Shown in pieces: positions 5,898 to 60,812 of a DNA stretch of 64,000 bases. The DNA is taken from assembly GCF_056712565.1 (NCBI RefSeq), contig NZ_CM160072.1. One strand, 5' to 3'. Below the pieces are notes generated by a model, which had not been told where the DNA came from, ran no database searches, and worked only from the letters and a program-made list of their open reading frames with translations. The position numbers were made by a program, and so were the translations under genes. How positions within the stretch are numbered: position 1 is the first letter of the stretch; every line of letters begins with the position of its first letter.

Positions 5898-6914
5898 ATG
5901 GGATATTTACATATTGATGGTAGAGGCATGAAGCCAAATGGAGGGAGCCGTCATAACCCTCTTGAAGCTGAAACAATAGCAGCATGGCTGGTGGCACATA
6001 AGGATGATATAGAGCGCCATTACGGGGAACCACTGTACAAAGTTGTTGGTGTTGTGACGCCATTTTCGGCGCAGGTTAATGCTATCAAAATGTCATTGCG
6101 TAAGCTGGAAATTAATGGCAAAGACGAGCAGGGTTTACTGACAGTGGGGACTGTGCACTCCTTGCAGGGGGCGGAAAGGGCGATTGTTCTCTTTTCTCCT
6201 GTCTACTCAAAACATGAAGATGGCAGGTTTCTTGATAGCAACAGCACTATCCTCAATGTTGCTGTCTCACGCGCTAAAGATAGTTTTCTGGTATTTGGCG
6301 ATATGGACCTTATCGAGATGCAGCCCGCATTTTCGCCGCGAGGGTTATTGGCAAAATATCTCTTTTCTTCAGATAATAATGCGTTGCAATTTGAGTTTCA
6401 GAAACGACAGGATTTAATTTCCGCACATACACAAATTTCAACGCTGCATGGTGTGGAGCAGCATGATGAATTTTTGAACAAGACTCTTGCCGGAGCTCAA
6501 AAGAAAATAACGATTATTTCCCCTTGGTTATCCTGGCAAAAAGTGGAGCAAACGGGATTTCTGGCATCAATGGCTTTGGCCCGTTCCCGGGGCATTGATA
6601 TTACCGTGGTGACGGATAAAAACTGCAATATAGCGCATGTCGATGATGATAAGCGTCAGGAGAAACAACATCTGCTGAATGATGCTGTTGAAAAGCTCAA
6701 TAAGATGGGTATCGCTACGAAATTGGTTAATCGTGTTCACAGCAAAATTGTGATTGAGGATGAAGAACTGCTGTGTGTCGGATCTTTTAACTGGTTCAGT
6801 GCTACACGGGAAGATAAGTATCAACGATACGATACGTCTTTGGTGTACCGTGGTGAAGGCGTAAAAAATGAAATAAAGGCAATATATGGTAGTCTGGATC
6901 AACGTCAGCTTTAA
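5898..6914 (+). CDS. yjhR: YjhR-like protein: C-terminal SF1 helicase motifs fused to a PLD-like domain; likely remnant of a larger gene
   Basis: 338-aa ORF with helicase C-terminal motifs ([22 protein letters not shown]) followed by a PLD-like region ([24 protein letters not shown]); upstream 5722-5931 frame has further helicase-like sequence in another frame. Confidence 0.6.
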
Positions 6915-51467: not shown

Positions 51468-53618
51468 TTAGTGGTGCGAAGAGATCTTCACGCCGCCTTC
51501 CGGGATTGGAACGTACGGTGTTTCTTTGTCAGTACGTTTGTCGCTGTTACGCACCTTCAGCCAGGTTTTGAAACCGTAGAAGATGATGCTGTACACCACA
51601 ATCAGGAACAGAATACTCAGGCCTGCGTTGGTGTAGTTGTTCACAACGATGTGGTTCATGTTGGCAATCTGCTGCGCCGTCAGGTCAGTACCGTTAGCAA
51701 TCTTCTCTTTGTACTGGCTCGCCATGTAGAAGAAGCCTTCCATCTGCGGGTTGGTGCTGAACAGTTTCAGGCCCAGCGCCCAGGTGGTGCAGATAAGCAG
51801 CCATACTGCCGGGATAACGGTAACCCAGATGTATTGGGTGCGCTTCATCTTAATCAGTACAACGGTGCCCAGTACCAGCGCCACGGCTGCCAGCATCTGG
51901 TTGGAGATACCGAACAGCGGCCACAGGCTCTTAACGCCGCCCAGCGGATCGACCACGCCCTGATACAGCAGGTAGCCCCACAGACCCACACAGCCCGCAG
52001 TACCGATGATACCGGCAACCAGAGAGTCGGTTTTTTTCAGGAACGGGATGAAGTTACCCAGCAGGTCTTGCAGCATAAAGCGGCCAGAACGGGTACCCGC
52101 ATCCAGCGCGGTCAGGATGAACAGGGCTTCGAACAGAATACCGAAGTGATACCAGAAGCCCATGTCAGCCATCGGCAGCACTTTGTGGAACACGTGAGCG
52201 ATACCTACCGCCAGCGTTGGCGCACCACCTGCACGGTTCAGGACAGAAGGCTCACCAATGTCTTTCGCGGTTTGCAGGATCTGCTCTGGCGAAATCACGA
52301 AGCCCCAGGAGCTGACGGTCGCTGCCGCGTGTGCGGTAACGTCTTTCAGCTGTGCCATGATGATCGGCGCGTTCTCGCCACCCATTTCATGCAGGTTAGG
52401 CATGGTGATGCCGAGGCCAGCAGGCGGGGTGTTCATCGCGAAGTAAAGACCCGGTTCGATGATGGACGCAGCAACCAGCGCCATAATCGCCACGAAGGAC
52501 TCCATCAGCATTGCGCCGTAGCCGATGAAACGCGCGTCGGTTTCATTAGCCAGCAGTTTCGGCGTCGTGCCGGAAGAGATCAGCGCGTGGAAGCCAGATA
52601 CCGCACCACAGGCGATGGTGATGAACAGGAACGGGAACAGAGCGCCTTTCCACAGCGGGCCAGTACCGTCAATGTACTGGGTCATGGCAGGCATTTTCAG
52701 TTCCGGGTTCAGCACCACGATACCCAGCGCCAGGCCGACGATAACGCCGATTTTCAGGAAGGTTGCCAGATAGTCGCGCGGTGCGAGGATCAGCCACACT
52801 GGCAGCAGTGCGGAAACAAACGCATAGCCAATCAGCGCGAAAGTAATGGTGGTATCTTTAAAGGTCAGTGCCGGACCCCAGTACGGATCGTGAGCAATCA
52901 CGCCACCGAAGTAGATAGAGGCAACCAGCAGCACGATACCAATGACAGAGACTTCACCCACACGCCCCGGACGAATAAAGCGCATGTAGATACCCATAAA
53001 CAGCGCAATCGGTACGGTTGAGCAAACGGTGAAGACCCCCCACGGACTTTCGGCCAGGGCTTTAACCACAATCAGTGCCAGAACGGCGAGGATGATGATC
53101 ATGATTAAGAAACAGCCAAACAGCGCGATAGTCCCCGGTACTGGTCCCATCTCTTCTTTGATCATCTCACCAAGAGATGCGCCGTTACGGCGAGAGGAGA
53201 TAAACAGCACCATAAAGTCCTGAACCGCACCGGCCAGCACGACCCCCGCCAGCAGCCACAGCGTGCCAGGCAGGTAGCCCATCTGCGCGGCGAGAACCGG
53301 ACCCACCAGCGGACCAGCACCGGCGATAGCGGCGAAGTGGTGACCAAACAACACGTAACGGTTGGTCGGAACGTAGTTCAGACCGTCGTTGTTAATAACC
53401 GCAGGCGTCGCGCGCGTGGGGTCGAGTTTCATCACCTTCTGGGCGATGTACAGACTGTAGTAGCGATACGCCACCAGATACACCGACACAGAGGCGACCA
53501 CGATCCACAGGGCGCTGACGTGCTCCCCCCGACGTAATGCAACTACCGCGAGGCAGAATGCACCGATGATTCCGAGAATCACCCAAGGTATGTGCTTGAA
53601 TATCTTTTTAGTATCCAT
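51468..53618 (-). CDS. btsT: Pyruvate/H+ symporter BtsT (YjiY), CstA family
   Basis: ORF 51468-53633; start set at MDTKKIFKHIPWVIL (716 aa); large polytopic membrane protein. Confidence 0.85.
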   Translation of the reverse strand: MDTKKIFKHIPWVILGIIGAFCLAVVALRRGEHVSALWIVVASVSVYLVAYRYYSLYIAQKVMKLDPTRATPAVINNDGLNYVPTNRYVLFGHHFAAIAGAGPLVGPVLAAQMGYLPGTLWLLAGVVLAGAVQDFMVLFISSRRNGASLGEMIKEEMGPVPGTIALFGCFLIMIIILAVLALIVVKALAESPWGVFTVCSTVPIALFMGIYMRFIRPGRVGEVSVIGIVLLVASIYFGGVIAHDPYWGPALTFKDTTITFALIGYAFVSALLPVWLILAPRDYLATFLKIGVIVGLALGIVVLNPELKMPAMTQYIDGTGPLWKGALFPFLFITIACGAVSGFHALISSGTTPKLLANETDARFIGYGAMLMESFVAIMALVAASIIEPGLYFAMNTPPAGLGITMPNLHEMGGENAPIIMAQLKDVTAHAAATVSSWGFVISPEQILQTAKDIGEPSVLNRAGGAPTLAVGIAHVFHKVLPMADMGFWYHFGILFEALFILTALDAGTRSGRFMLQDLLGNFIPFLKKTDSLVAGIIGTAGCVGLWGYLLYQGVVDPLGGVKSLWPLFGISNQMLAAVALVLGTVVLIKMKRTQYIWVTVIPAVWLLICTTWALGLKLFSTNPQMEGFFYMASQYKEKIANGTDLTAQQIANMNHIVVNNYTNAGLSILFLIVVYSIIFYGFKTWLKVRNSDKRTDKETPYVPIPEGGVKISSHH

Positions 53619-53830
53619 AGTAAAACCTGGCATGTATTGATTAATAGTTGGCCGAAGCCGTTCTAGGTTTGCGTTGCGTTTGAGGAGGTAAATTGACCGC
53701 TATCCTGCAGTGATGTTGCCAGAGTTACGCGCGCGTAAAGTAAGGTAAATAACTGAGTGGTTATTTTAGGGACGTAAGCGGTCAGGAATGGCGGTGAGCG
53801 GCAAAGGCGTCGTTTAAGTGACCATAAATA

Positions 53831-53846
53831 TGTGATTTATATCACA
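53831..53846. promoter_or_regulatory. Candidate CRP binding site upstream of btsT
   Basis: TGTGATTTATATCACA is a perfect TGTGA-N6-TCACA palindrome, about 215 bp upstream of the btsT start. Confidence 0.6.
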
Positions 53847-53937
53847 TATTTATATTGCGAATAATTTATGTAAATAATGGCTTTTTAAATTCAGGGGGTG
53901 AATAAAATTACTCGGCGTCATCTCCGCGGGATTTTCA

Positions 53938-53964
53938 TAAAGTTTTTCCTTTCCAGGCCGAAAA
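53938..53964 (+). promoter_or_regulatory. Sigma28 (FliA) promoter of tsr
   Basis: TAAAGTTT, 11-bp spacer, GCCGAAAA matches the FliA consensus TAAAGTTT-N11-GCCGATAA; about 30 bp upstream of the tsr ATG. Confidence 0.75.
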
Positions 53965-53994
53965 TCTTGCATCGGTCCACAGGAAAGAGAAACC

Positions 53995-55650
53995 ATGTTA
54001 AAACGTATCAAAATTGTGACCAGCCTACTGCTGGTTTTGGCCGTTTTTGGCCTTTTACAACTGACTTCAGGCGGTCTGTTCTTTAATGCCTTAAAGAACG
54101 ACAAAGAAAATTTCACTGTTTTACAAACCATTCGCCAGCAGCAATCCACGCTGAATGGCAGCTGGGTCGCTTTGTTGCAGACGCGTAACACCCTCAACCG
54201 CGCGGGTATCCGCTACATGATGGATCAGAACAATATTGGTAGCGGTTCAACCGTTGCTGAGCTGATGCAGAGTGCCAGTATTTCGCTGAAACAGGCGGAA
54301 AAAAACTGGGCGGATTACGAAGCGTTGCCGCGTGACCCGCGTCAGAGCACCGCCGCAGCGGCAGAGATCAAACGTAATTACGATATTTATCACAATGCGC
54401 TGGCGGAGCTGATACAACTGTTAGGTGCAGGCAAAATCAACGAGTTCTTTGATCAGCCGACCCAGGGATATCAGGACGGTTTCGAGAAGCAGTATGTGGC
54501 TTACATGGAGCAAAACGATCGGCTCTATGATATCGCCGTCAGCGATAACAATGCCTCCTACAGCCAGGCGATGTGGATTCTGGTAGGCGTGATGATCGTC
54601 GTACTGGCGGTCATCCTCGCCGTCTGGTTCGGTATTAAAGCCTCGCTGGTAGCGCCAATGAATCGCCTGATTGACAGCATTCGTCATATTGCAGGCGGCG
54701 ATCTGGTGAAACCGATTGAGGTGGATGGCTCTAATGAGATGGGGCAACTGGCAGAGAGTTTGCGCCATATGCAGGGAGAGCTGATGCGTACCGTCGGTGA
54801 TGTGCGCAACGGGGCCAATGCCATCTATAGCGGTGCCAGCGAAATCGCCACCGGCAATAACGATCTCTCTTCGCGCACCGAGCAACAGGCCGCTTCGCTG
54901 GAAGAGACGGCAGCCAGCATGGAGCAACTGACCGCAACGGTGAAACAGAATGCCGAAAATGCGCGCCAGGCCAGCCATCTGGCGTTAAGTGCTTCCGAAA
55001 CGGCGCAACGCGGCGGCAAAGTGGTGGATAACGTGGTGCAGACCATGCGCGATATCTCCACCAGTTCGCAGAAAATCGCCGATATTATCAGCGTAATTGA
55101 CGGCATTGCCTTCCAGACCAATATTCTGGCTTTGAACGCGGCGGTTGAGGCTGCGCGTGCGGGTGAGCAAGGACGCGGTTTTGCGGTGGTCGCGGGAGAA
55201 GTGCGTAATCTGGCCCAGCGTAGCGCTCAGGCTGCTCGTGAAATTAAAAGCCTGATTGAAGACTCGGTGGGGAAAGTGGATGTTGGCTCTACGCTGGTCG
55301 AAAGCGCCGGGGAAACAATGGCGGAGATTGTCAGTGCCGTGACCCGCGTGACGGACATTATGGGCGAAATTGCTTCTGCTTCTGATGAGCAGAGCCGTGG
55401 TATCGATCAGGTTGGCTTAGCGGTTGCTGAGATGGACCGGGTAACTCAACAGAACGCCGCGCTGGTGGAAGAATCTGCCGCCGCCGCCGCCGCGCTGGAA
55501 GAACAGGCCAGTCGCCTGACCGAAGCAGTGGCAGTGTTCCGGATTCAGCAACAGCAGCGTGAAGCATCGGCTGTGGTAAAAACCGTGACGCCAGCTACGC
55601 CGCGCAAAATGGCCGTGGCAGATAGCGAGGAGAACTGGGAAACGTTTTAA
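53995..55650 (+). CDS. tsr: Methyl-accepting chemotaxis protein I (serine chemoreceptor) Tsr
   Basis: 551-aa ORF with TM1, periplasmic domain, HAMP and conserved signalling domain ([41 protein letters not shown]) and C-terminal NWETF. Confidence 0.95.
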
Positions 55651-55692: not shown

Positions 55693-56964
55693 TTAAACCA
55701 GGAACAGTGAAATCGCCGGGATATATGTCACCAGCATTAGCATTAACAGTAGAGCCGCCAGTAGGGGCAGGGATTGTTTAAAGAAATTTCCCACCGAAAC
55801 TTGCGTGATATTACATACCAGCAGCATCACGGTACCTACCGGTGGCGTGAATGCGCCAATCGACAGGTTGAAGATCATGATGATGCCAAAATGCACCGGA
55901 TCGATGCCAAAGTGTTCGACCACCGGTTTTAATAGTGGTACCAGGATCAGCAAAATGGCGTTTCCTTCCAGAAACATCCCCAGCGTCAGCAGCAATATGT
56001 TGATAATCAACAGGAACATGTATTTGTTTTCGGTCAGCGAAGTCACAAAATTCGCCACTGCGACACCAGCATGTTCCATTGAGAAAATCCATCCCAATGC
56101 GGCGCTGGCCATGATTACCAGCATCACCGATGCGGTTGCGCGTGCCGTTTCGCCCAATGCTTTGACGACATGAGAAATCCGCATTTCACGATAGATAAAA
56201 AAGCCAATCGCCAGCACGATTAGCACCGCTACTGCACCTGCTTCTGTTGGGGTGAAAATGTTAGCGCGAATACCACCCACCACAGCAAAAATGAGGAACA
56301 GCGCAGGCCAGGCCTGTCCCAGCGAGAACACCACCTCTTTGCCCGTAGGCCAGCTTTCACGCGAGGGTTTAGCGTTAGTTTTGCGGGCGACAAGGTAGAC
56401 GGTAAACATCAGTACGACTGCGCATAGCAAACCAGGTACCAGTCCGGCGATAAACATTTTTCCGATAGAGACATCGGCAACCAGACCGTAAATAATCAGG
56501 GCTATTCCAGGCGGTATGATCGGGGTGACTAACGAGCCACCAGCGGTAATGGCGGCGGCAAACGCGCGATTGTAGCCTTTACGTTCCATCTCCGGCACCA
56601 TCATGCGCGACAGCATCGCCGCGTCAGCAAGGTTAGAGGCGCTGACGCCGCCCATCATGGTGCTGACGAGAATGTTTGCCACGCCCAGTCCGCCGCGCAT
56701 TTTCCCCACCAGAACGTTGGCAATGTGCAGGATGCGTTCGGCAATGCCGGTGTAGCTCATTAGTGTGCCGAGCAAGATAAAAAACGGAATTGCCAGCAAT
56801 GATGGGCTTTGCGTTGGCGCGATTAGTCTTTGCACGGCAATTTCAATCGGTACGCTGGAGAAGAATAAAAAGTAAGCGATGATGCCAATAAACATCGCCA
56901 GATAGACCCGAATGTTGAGAAACAAACAGACGATCATTAGCGGAATAATCAATAACCAACTCAT
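55693..56964 (-). CDS. TRAP transporter large permease (DctM family)
   Basis: 423-aa polytopic ORF; 4-nt overlap with the upstream DctQ-like gene. Confidence 0.8.
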   Translation of the reverse strand: MSWLLIIPLMIVCLFLNIRVYLAMFIGIIAYFLFFSSVPIEIAVQRLIAPTQSPSLLAIPFFILLGTLMSYTGIAERILHIANVLVGKMRGGLGVANILVSTMMGGVSASNLADAAMLSRMMVPEMERKGYNRAFAAAITAGGSLVTPIIPPGIALIIYGLVADVSIGKMFIAGLVPGLLCAVVLMFTVYLVARKTNAKPSRESWPTGKEVVFSLGQAWPALFLIFAVVGGIRANIFTPTEAGAVAVLIVLAIGFFIYREMRISHVVKALGETARATASVMLVIMASAALGWIFSMEHAGVAVANFVTSLTENKYMFLLIINILLLTLGMFLEGNAILLILVPLLKPVVEHFGIDPVHFGIIMIFNLSIGAFTPPVGTVMLLVCNITQVSVGNFFKQSLPLLAALLLMLMLVTYIPAISLFLV

Positions 56965-57434
56965 TGCATTTTGTCTCCGCTATCGGATTGTTTTGTATCG
57001 TTTATTAACCAGTAGAGGGTATAAATAGCCGTTGCCAGTGCGCCGACAGGGACCGCCAGATCGATCCAGAACCAGGAAACTTTCAGAATTTGTGTCACTT
57101 TAAACTGCGCCATTTCGGCTAGTCGGTAGCCCAGCCAGGCCATATAAAGCAGCAGTGCGATGGAGAGAAGGGCGACCAGTACTGCAATAACACGCCTGAG
57201 TTTGCCTGGAAGCATCTCCATCAGGAAGGGAATGGTCAGGTGCGCCCTGTCACGTTCCGCCACCACTCCACCTAACATCACCACCCAAATCATCAGCATT
57301 CCCGACATTTCTTCTGTCCATTGAAGCGGTTGGCCGATGAAATAACGCATAAATACCGCTCCAATTGTCACCACAACCAGAACGAATAGCGCAAAGGCAG
57401 CACTAAATTCTGCCACTTTGCCAAAAAGACGCAT
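56961..57434 (-). CDS. TRAP transporter small permease (DctQ family)
   Basis: 157-aa ORF with four predicted TM helices between the DctP-like and DctM-like genes. Confidence 0.75.
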   Translation of the reverse strand: MRLFGKVAEFSAAFALFVLVVVTIGAVFMRYFIGQPLQWTEEMSGMLMIWVVMLGGVVAERDRAHLTIPFLMEMLPGKLRRVIAVLVALLSIALLLYMAWLGYRLAEMAQFKVTQILKVSWFWIDLAVPVGALATAIYTLYWLINDTKQSDSGDKMQ

Positions 57435-59159: not shown

Positions 59160-60812
59160 ATGGAAATACTTTTAACAATTTTAATTCTTACGTTGGTAGT
59201 ATCATTAACCAGCGTGCTTACACGTCTGTCTCCTGTCCAGATACCACTTCCTTTAATCCAGATTGCCGCTGGCGCAGTACTGGCCCAGCCTATATTTGGT
59301 CTGCATGTGGAATTCAATCCTGAACTTTTTCTCTTATTGTTTATACCACCCCTGTTGTTTGCTGAAAGTTCAAAAATACAACCTAAAGAATTGATCAAGC
59401 ACAGCCGGGAAATTATCAGCCTGGCACTTGTGTTGGTACTAATCACTATTTTTTGTGTCGGCTATGTGATTCATTTACTCTTACCGAATGTGCCGCTCAT
59501 CGCTGCTTTCGCATTAGCCGCCGTGTTGTCGCCTACCGATGCCGTGGCGTTGCTGGGGATTGTCGGGAAAGGGCGTATCAGCAAAAACATCCAGGAAGTG
59601 CTCGAAGGCGAAGCGTTGATGAATGATGCTTCCGGCCTGGTGGCGTTGAAATTTGCTGTTGCAGTGACGATGGGAACGATGGAATTCAGCGTTCATGGCG
59701 CAACCATTGCGTTTTTTGTCGTTGCGTTGGGCGGTATTGCCGTGGGGATCGCTGTTACCTGGTTATATGGTAAAGGGCTGCTGTTGATCAGCCGATATGC
59801 TCACGATGAACCTTCCATTCAGATTGTATTGATGCTTCTGTTGCCGTTTATTGTTTATCTGGTTGCGGAACATTTTGGCTTATCTGGCATTCTTGCCGCT
59901 GTCGCCGCGGGGTTAACAACCAGTCGCATTGGTGTAGTCCACCACGCGCCTATTCGCCTGAGAATTAAAGCTAAAAGTAGCTGGTCGATGCTTGAATATG
60001 TCTTTAACGGCATGGTGTTTCTGATTTTAGGCTTACAACTGCCGGGCATTATTTCGGAATCACTGATCCGTGCAGAAAACGATCCACTGGTGGACACCGG
60101 ATCGCTGCTCCTTGATGTCATTTGGATCTACCTGGCGTTAATGGTTGTGCGCCTGGGCTGGCTTTGGCTGATGCGTCTGTATAGCCGTAAACGACCCGGC
60201 AAACATCCGATGCTGTTTGCTGGATATAAAACGCGTCATATGCTGCTGGCGACCTTTGCGGGGGTGCGCGGAGCTATCACGCTTGCGGGGGTGCTTTCTA
60301 TCCCGTTATTGCTGCCGGATGGCACACCTTTTCCCGGGCGTTACTTGCTGGTATTTCTCGCCACAGGTGTGATCCTCTTTTCGCTGGTTTGCGGCATTAT
60401 TATTCTGCCGTTATTACTGGGGAAAAATGTGGGGATTTTCAGCGATAACCGACAAAAAGAAGAGGAAGCTGCCGATCTGTTTATGGCTAAAATGGCCATA
60501 CTGAGTGTGCAAAAGACCGAGCAACGTTTGCTGCGCGCCAGAACAGAAAACCTCGATAACGAGTTGATTATGGAAACGGGGGCCAGAGTTATCGGTTATA
60601 TGCGACATAGTGAAGAGGATATGTCGCCTAATGATAATTCCCTGCATATGCAGCGTGCGAAGCTGGAAAGAACATTTAATCTGGCGGCGTTAAATGCCAA
60701 ACGCGCGGCTATTTACCAGATGCGCGCAAGGCAAGAAGTCAGTGATGAAACACTGGCAAAAATAGTCAGTGAATTAGATGTGCTGGAAACGTTAATCATG
60801 GATAGCCGATAA
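59160..60812 (+). CDS. CPA1-family Na+/H+ (cation/proton) antiporter
   Basis: ORF 59139-60812; start likely MEILLTIL; N-terminal transport domain with NhaP-like motifs (SPTDAVALLG, EGEALMNDASGLV) and a long cytoplasmic tail. Confidence 0.75.
   Translation: MEILLTILILTLVVSLTSVLTRLSPVQIPLPLIQIAAGAVLAQPIFGLHVEFNPELFLLLFIPPLLFAESSKIQPKELIKHSREIISLALVLVLITIFCVGYVIHLLLPNVPLIAAFALAAVLSPTDAVALLGIVGKGRISKNIQEVLEGEALMNDASGLVALKFAVAVTMGTMEFSVHGATIAFFVVALGGIAVGIAVTWLYGKGLLLISRYAHDEPSIQIVLMLLLPFIVYLVAEHFGLSGILAAVAAGLTTSRIGVVHHAPIRLRIKAKSSWSMLEYVFNGMVFLILGLQLPGIISESLIRAENDPLVDTGSLLLDVIWIYLALMVVRLGWLWLMRLYSRKRPGKHPMLFAGYKTRHMLLATFAGVRGAITLAGVLSIPLLLPDGTPFPGRYLLVFLATGVILFSLVCGIIILPLLLGKNVGIFSDNRQKEEEAADLFMAKMAILSVQKTEQRLLRARTENLDNELIMETGARVIGYMRHSEEDMSPNDNSLHMQRAKLERTFNLAALNAKRAAIYQMRARQEVSDETLAKIVSELDVLETLIMDSR

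Follow-up and report, generated by a model that had tools for sequence, protein, structure and literature searches.

The stretch of DNA analysed here (64,000 nt, referred to throughout as the window) belongs to a non-K-12 E. coli lineage and contains btsT (pyruvate transporter) and tsr (serine chemoreceptor) in a divergent arrangement, with the spacer between them harbouring regulatory elements for both genes. Over an 801-bp query (53400-54200) it is 100% identical to a chicken E. coli genome, in which btsT and tsr are annotated as they are in the window, and 97.3% identical to a K-12-like genome. From the btsT side to the tsr side, the locus comprises the following features.

51468..53618, - strand: btsT, with its ATG at 53618
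53619..53706, - strand: predicted btsT leader of ~88 nt, with conserved blocks and a Shine-Dalgarno AGG
53659->53650, - strand: leader hairpin GGC-UUCG-GCC (tetraloop), kept across Enterobacteriaceae
53690->53680, - strand: leader block UACCUCCUCAA, kept across Enterobacteriaceae
53713..53721, - strand: putative btsT extended -10, reading TGgCAACAT on the btsT strand, placed by conservation only
53754..53761, - strand: BtsR repeat R3, ACCACTCA, 13 bp after R2
53775..53782, - strand: BtsR repeat R2, ACCGCTTA, the most conserved of the three, first base 56.5 bp from the CRP centre
53795..53802, - strand: BtsR (YehT) repeat R1, GCCGCTCA in btsT sense, first base 36.5 bp from the CRP centre
53802..53932, no strand: allele-specific spacer segment with the CRP site inside, replaced elsewhere by the hpa island or a 180-aa ORF
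53824..53853, no strand: extended palindrome around the CRP core, with 13-nt arms ATAAATATGTGAT and ATCACATATTTAT and 4 nt between them
53831..53846, no strand: CRP site core TGTGATTTATATCACA, centre 53838.5
53938..53945, + strand: sigma-28 (FliA) -35 of the tsr promoter, TAAAGTTT, part of the FliA ChIP-seq motif (PMC4183435)
53957..53964, + strand: sigma-28 -10 of the tsr promoter, GCCGAAAA, consensus GCCGATAA (PMC4183435)
53970..53994, + strand: tsr 5' leader of ~25 nt, from a start at ~53970 transferred from the published K-12 CRP distance (PMC2859248)
53995..55650, + strand: tsr

The CRP core consists of the inverted half-sites TGTGA and TCACA set 6 bp apart, with all 10 core positions matched, and a motif scan finds it to be the sole perfect TGTGA-N6-TCACA in the 64 kb window; in shuffled versions of the window such a core occurs 0.04 times on average, with at least one match in 4 of 100 shuffles. 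Against the full 22-bp consensus, by our own reading of the sequence, 18 positions agree. The site lies upstream of the three BtsR repeats, and its centre is 220 bp from the btsT ATG. Its K-12 orthologue, TGTGATTCATATCACA, has the same half-sites and differs at one base of the spacer, which reads TTCATA in K-12 and TTTATA in the window. This K-12 site at yjiY (btsT)-tsr is credited by Hollands et al. (2010) to a prediction by Robison (1998), and in the former study, where eight well-characterised K-12 sigma-28 regulatory regions were assayed by EMSA, CRP bound the tsr regulatory fragment carrying it, with an affinity described as 'much tighter' than that for the aer fragment (PMC2859248). Around the core, the 13-nt arms form a perfect inverted repeat in the allele common to the window and K-12. 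Amongst the three alleles compared they are confined to this one, those of BL21 (hpa-type) and O157 having the core palindrome alone. The extended palindrome may underlie the unusually tight binding reported for the K-12 fragment.

On the other side of the spacer, TAAAGTTTTTCCTTTCCAGGCCGAAAA (53938-53964, + strand) departs at a single position from TAAAGTTT-N11-GCCGATAA, matching 15 of 16 consensus positions across an 11-bp spacer, a level (one mismatch or fewer) reached in none of 100 shuffles; neither this motif nor the CRP site is a chance match. It is oriented towards tsr, with its -10 ending 30 nt before the ATG, and in both sequence and orientation it has the character of a sigma-28 class 3 promoter. 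In other genomes, TAAAGTTT-N11-GCCGA[A/C]AA is present at each of 19 tsr-adjacent loci, with the -10 ending 29-31 nt ahead of the start codon. The K-12 FliA ChIP-seq peak was reported with the motif TAAAGTTTTTCCTTTCCAGGCCGAAAAT (Fitzgerald et al. 2014, PMC4183435), a 28-mer that is identical at every base to positions 53938-53965, and in the same study tsr RNA fell from 630 in the wild type to 9 when fliA was deleted. SELEX with the RpoF holoenzyme likewise gave a peak in the yjiY/tsr spacer (Shimada et al. 2017, PMC5493296). At tsr, the sigma-28 holoenzyme recognises 53938-53964 and initiates at ~53970, making tsr a class 3 flagellar gene. As regards mapped start sites, a conflict with which the original prediction had named as its refutation, the published K-12 position of CRP, 132.5 bp upstream of the tsr start, is consistent with this for tsr. 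A second sigma-28-like match in the 64 kb window, at 60786-60812, has three mismatches and is at chance level.

The original prediction, of a perfect CRP palindrome upstream of btsT and a near-consensus FliA promoter for tsr, is therefore borne out on both counts, as is its remark that both were to be expected, since prior work on E. coli K-12 has established the two elements as well as the dependence of each gene on its regulator. The K-12 region, as described by Robison 1998 (as cited by Hollands 2010), Hollands 2010, Kraxenberger 2012 and Fitzgerald 2014, shares with the window the same genes and order of elements, the sigma-28 28-mer, the CRP half-sites, and the three BtsR repeats with their spacing. 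Apart from the CRP spacer, it differs in the R1-R2 linker, and the interval from CRP to the sigma-28 promoter is a base shorter in the window, so that CRP lies at -131.5 from the tsr start rather than at -132.5 as in K-12. The annotation is thereby confirmed, with little significance beyond that. What is added is comparative and modest, in that a polymorphic junction cleanly parts two control units and assigns the CRP site to btsT. The three spacer alleles, the fixed CRP-BtsR geometry and the putative extended -10 set out below appear not to have been highlighted in the literature examined, and are incremental.

With regard to btsT, YehT-mediated transcription of the gene (as yjiY) is known to depend on cAMP-CRP as well (PMC5431176; PMC5936718), and btsT-lux reporter activity disappears when crp is mutated (Gasperotti et al. 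2020, PMC7730263), a loss that could in principle be partly indirect, for example via btsSR expression or pyruvate metabolism. The oligonucleotide published as the 'yjiY YehT binding site' spans three direct repeats (Behr et al. 2016, PMC4847170), and R1-R3 fall within it in identical or nearly identical form. They constitute an array of ACCGCTYA-type direct repeats of the BtsR/YehT (LytTR) kind, 12-13 bp apart and conserved in 61 species. LytTR-regulated promoters carry direct repeats of 8-11 nt, 11-13 nt apart, upstream of the promoter (PMC4847170); btsT shares this layout, but has three repeats rather than two, together with an obligatory CRP site fixed 36.5 bp further upstream. A mechanical ORF call extends btsT to an in-frame ATG at 53633, five codons upstream (721 aa); this codon is not conserved in other genera and comes without a Shine-Dalgarno sequence, the annotated 716-aa start at 53618 being the conserved one.

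A sigma-70 scan of the spacer detected no consensus promoter on the btsT strand, which fits a strictly activator-dependent promoter. On the + strand the scan gave two weak sigma-70-like matches overlapping the CRP site, where 1.3 would be expected, which is at chance level. The supplements of Kim 2012 list neither yjiY nor any coordinate in this region from which a mapped btsT start could be taken, and neither yjiY nor tsr has an entry in the Crp ChIP-exo supplements. The btsT start was instead approached by phylogenetic footprinting in an alignment of 61 species. Downstream of the repeats, this alignment contains the block TCTGGCAAGAT (TCTGGCAACAT in E. coli, 53723->53713), in which the TG, and the A2 and T6 of the hexamer, are ~90% conserved, the pattern that would be expected of an extended -10. 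Proteus, Morganella and Xenorhabdus have a near-consensus TATCAT or TATGAT in the same alignment block as the E. coli -10, offset from the repeats to within ~3 nt of E. coli, and exactly so for Proteus mirabilis. On this footprint transcription would begin near 53706, with CRP at ~-132.5 and the repeat centres at ~-51.5, -72.5 and -92.5.

Two other promoter assignments for btsT were considered. A -35 of TTTACC with a -10 ~17 bp downstream would place CRP at ~-123; its -10 is poorly conserved, and it was ranked below the extended -10. A sigma-54 promoter, TGGCAA-N6-CTGCA (53721->53706, - strand), was also entertained; however, the GG-N10-GC signature of such promoters is not conserved, the -12 GC being absent in K-12 (CTACA) and Salmonella (CTCCA), and BtsR is a LytTR regulator rather than a sigma-54 activator. 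As the -12 GC is not conserved, the sigma-54 reading was dropped and the TGGCAA block reread as an extended -10.

The spacing of the CRP site was followed by scanning one genome per species with a degenerate btsT N-terminus pattern, which yielded 70 loci from Citrobacter, Salmonella, Klebsiella, Raoultella, Kluyvera, Kosakonia, Cedecea, Enterobacter, Pseudocitrobacter, Escherichia, Proteus, Morganella and Xenorhabdus; the 67 of these with enough upstream sequence, together with four E. coli alleles, make up the 71 btsT loci compared. All but one of them (70/71) carry a CRP-like site at 55.5-57.5 bp from R2 on the upstream side (29 sites perfect, 36 with one mismatch and 5 with two), and in 61 of the 71 the distance is exactly 56.5 bp. 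In the sole exception, a one-mismatch site is still 36.5 bp from its own R1. The upstream neighbour of btsT varies, being tsr, hpaC or unrelated genes, and the CRP-R2 spacing is kept regardless. The commonest site across these loci is TGTGATCTCAATCACA, the same as in the E. coli hpa-type allele. A comparative paper on the BtsR motif (PMC5552118) does not contain the term 'CRP', and hence no cross-genus rule for CRP spacing.

Within E. coli, at least three spacer alleles exist, counted here amongst 5,426 complete genomes.

2,740/5,426 genomes: direct btsT-tsr spacer, as in the window and K-12
2,066/5,426 genomes: hpa-island allele, with an ~11 kb 4-hydroxyphenylacetate cluster between btsT and tsr, as in BL21
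363/5,426 genomes: allele with a 180-aa ORF, family not assigned, as in O157:H7

In at least 45% of complete E. coli genomes, therefore, other DNA separates the CRP site from tsr. Homology between the alleles stops at the outer edge of R1 (53801/53802) and restarts at ~53933, just before the sigma-28 -35 (junctions at 53802-53932 in the window, 6526-6612 in the BL21 locus, L001, and 1903-2720 in the O157:H7 locus, L002). All three nonetheless have R1, a 29-bp linker and then a perfect TGTGA-N6-TCACA centred 36.5 bp from the first base of R1, though they share neither the sequence of the linker nor that of the N6 spacer or the outer flank. In BL21 the CRP site comes directly after the terminator of hpaC, with 11 kb between it and tsr, and the 118-bp hpaR-tsr spacer retains TAAAGTTT-N11-GCCGAAAA with no CRP site. 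In the O157-type allele the sigma-28 promoter is directly upstream of tsr, 0.8 kb from the CRP site. The linker on the hpaC side resembles those of Raoultella and Pseudocitrobacter, and this resemblance suggests that the btsT-hpa linkage is old. The 180-aa ORF of O157:H7 (L002 2012-2554, - strand; also L033 and L038) has no Pfam match; orthologues ~80% identical to it occupy the same position in some Citrobacter species.

Since the CRP site stays with btsT and the sigma-28 promoter with tsr in the split alleles, each element travels with its own gene. btsT owns the CRP site and tsr the sigma-28 promoter, as separate control units, and the assignment of CRP to btsT, already made in the original prediction, now draws on EMSA with the K-12 fragment, on the crp-dependence of btsT-lux and on a spacing held in 70 of 71 loci. 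We consider the locus to comprise two independent, back-to-back promoters, with BtsR and a far-upstream CRP site serving btsT and sigma-28 serving tsr (probability about 0.88). The earlier notion of a divergent control region survives to the extent that both elements do lie in the btsT-tsr spacer, but overstates their linkage, given the proportion of split genomes and the reported lack of a CRP effect on tsr. Similarly, the clarity of the sites was taken to support the strand assignments, which holds for the oriented sigma-28 promoter but not for the CRP site, as a palindrome cannot give strand.

The foremost alternative is that CRP also, or instead, regulates tsr, as a remote activator or modulator of the sigma-28 promoter within a shared divergent control region. 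Such an arrangement has precedent in that CRP directly activates two other sigma-28 chemoreceptor promoters, aer and trg, from sites centred at -49.5 (Hollands 2010, PMC2859248). Like aer and trg, tsr encodes a chemoreceptor and has both a sigma-28 promoter and a CRP site in its upstream region; the tsr site, however, is not at -49.5 but at -131.5 in the window, and no effect of CRP on expression from the tsr region was detected, a result cited by those authors as unpublished data. Where the two genes are adjacent, the CRP centre lies -102.5 to -136.5 from the tsr start (-780 to -1,260 otherwise), with recurring distances of -102.5/-103.5, -122.5 and -131.5/-132.5 that form a roughly 10-bp series, and so roughly one helical face, which hints at a possible phase constraint. 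By our own estimate this periodicity is not significant (Rayleigh p ~0.13, five lineage classes), and it is not taken as action on tsr because the phase is broken in two lineages of the adjacent type (-114.5 and -136.5), and because a 1-bp indel alters the spacing within E. coli itself, between the window and K-12. Moreover, many genera, like the split E. coli genomes, have 0.8-11 kb between the two elements with the sigma-28 promoter intact. Control of tsr by CRP is thus very improbable, and the tsr promoter would neither need nor use the site.

Under two independent promoters, then, cAMP-CRP would bind the palindrome centred at 53838.5, to be followed by BtsR on its three repeats at 20-21 bp intervals, and by a weak promoter of the extended -10 type downstream of these. 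CRP is proposed to act only jointly with pyruvate-activated BtsR, and, both being needed, btsT would be expressed in the presence of pyruvate once better carbon sources are exhausted. From the CRP centre downstream, it is 77 bp to the first base of R3 and 85 bp to its promoter-proximal end, which puts CRP beyond -85 from any start downstream of the repeats. The site is at none of the positions of class I (-61.5, -72.5, -82.5, -92.5) or class II (-41.5) activation. With the start placed as above, it would serve the BtsR-dependent promoter of btsT as a co-activator site far upstream, at ~-132, an assignment that draws on sequence comparison. As CRP keeps a bp-exact distance from the repeats whilst the sequence of the 29-bp linker is variable, it most likely acts stereospecifically, jointly with the BtsR array and/or the alpha C-terminal domain of polymerase and aided by the bend that it induces. 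At ~-132, CRP may bend the DNA and/or contact the alpha C-terminal domain of RNA polymerase or the BtsR array.

A second alternative would make CRP solely an anti-silencer or architectural protein, which opens AT-rich DNA under H-NS or LeuO silencing and needs no particular geometry towards BtsR or RNA polymerase. In the K-12-type allele the segment that surrounds the CRP site is indeed very AT-rich, LeuO has been reported as a btsT repressor (PMC5936718), and ~-132 is far for direct contact with polymerase. Such a role, however, needs no bp-exact spacing to the BtsR repeats, yet that spacing is exact in 61 of 71 loci; and the flanks in the hpa-type allele and in Klebsiella/Raoultella are not AT-rich, yet both site and spacing are kept there. 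We regard this explanation as still less probable than control of tsr. That one or both motifs might be functionless chance matches, in that a 10-position core can arise somewhere in a genome and did so in four of the shuffled windows, is already refuted by conservation at a fixed position across ~70 species, by the absence of any comparable sigma-28 motif from the shuffles, and by the published binding and expression data (PMC7730263, PMC2859248, PMC4183435).

Co-dependent (class III type) promoters offer the nearest comparison for CRP acting on btsT together with BtsR. At acsP2, CRP binds at -69.5 and -122.5, and at araBAD, CRP binds upstream of AraC. By analogy, the btsT arrangement resembles class III rather than class I or class II, with CRP upstream of the site(s) of another activator, both seemingly needed jointly, and a distal position beyond -100. 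It differs from acsP2 and araBAD in that the partner is a LytTR-type response regulator on three direct repeats, with no proximal CRP site. If the predicted start is right, the btsT site would be amongst the most distal obligatory CRP activator sites (~-132), operating via a LytTR array rather than a second CRP. The geometry comprises the CRP centre, an interval of 36.5 bp, three LytTR repeats at 20-21 bp and the putative extended -10; whether it constitutes a composite activator module of fixed geometry, kept across Enterobacterales and having survived at least three flank replacements in E. coli, is a proposal to which we would give even odds. The bp-exact CRP-BtsR spacing across ~70 species in any case provides a concrete, testable geometry for cooperation between a global regulator and a LytTR response regulator.

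The 3' side of tsr is a variable junction too. Downstream of tsr (55693-57434, - strand) the window contains TRAP transporter genes, encoding a large and a small permease and a substrate-binding protein, in place of which K-12 and BL21 have lgoT (yjiZ). The weak published FliA site of the K-12 'tsr/yjiZ convergent' region would not be expected in the window strain.

The predicted btsT leader also displays several distinct structures. The block UACCUCCUCAA is anti-Shine-Dalgarno-like, and on the + strand it reads GAGGAGGT, followed by TTG and a 6-codon ORF. An Rfam scan of the spacer returned zero matches. Post-transcriptional control of btsT by CsrA has been reported (PMC5431176), to which the conserved leader blocks may be related. 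The BL21 leader is interrupted by a ~123-bp insert (L001 6236-6360), which follows the conserved hairpin and precedes the Shine-Dalgarno sequence; as it agrees with the sequences of the ERIC1R and ERIC2 primers, we take it to be an ERIC/IRU repeat. In several other species (L006, L037, L045, L049) the CRP site is ~120-135 bp farther from the btsT ATG, which suggests similar leader insertions. Two Kluyvera loci harbour a second CRP site farther upstream, ~437-440 bp from btsT, with no mismatch at L009 and a single one at L071; it presumably serves the neighbouring gene.
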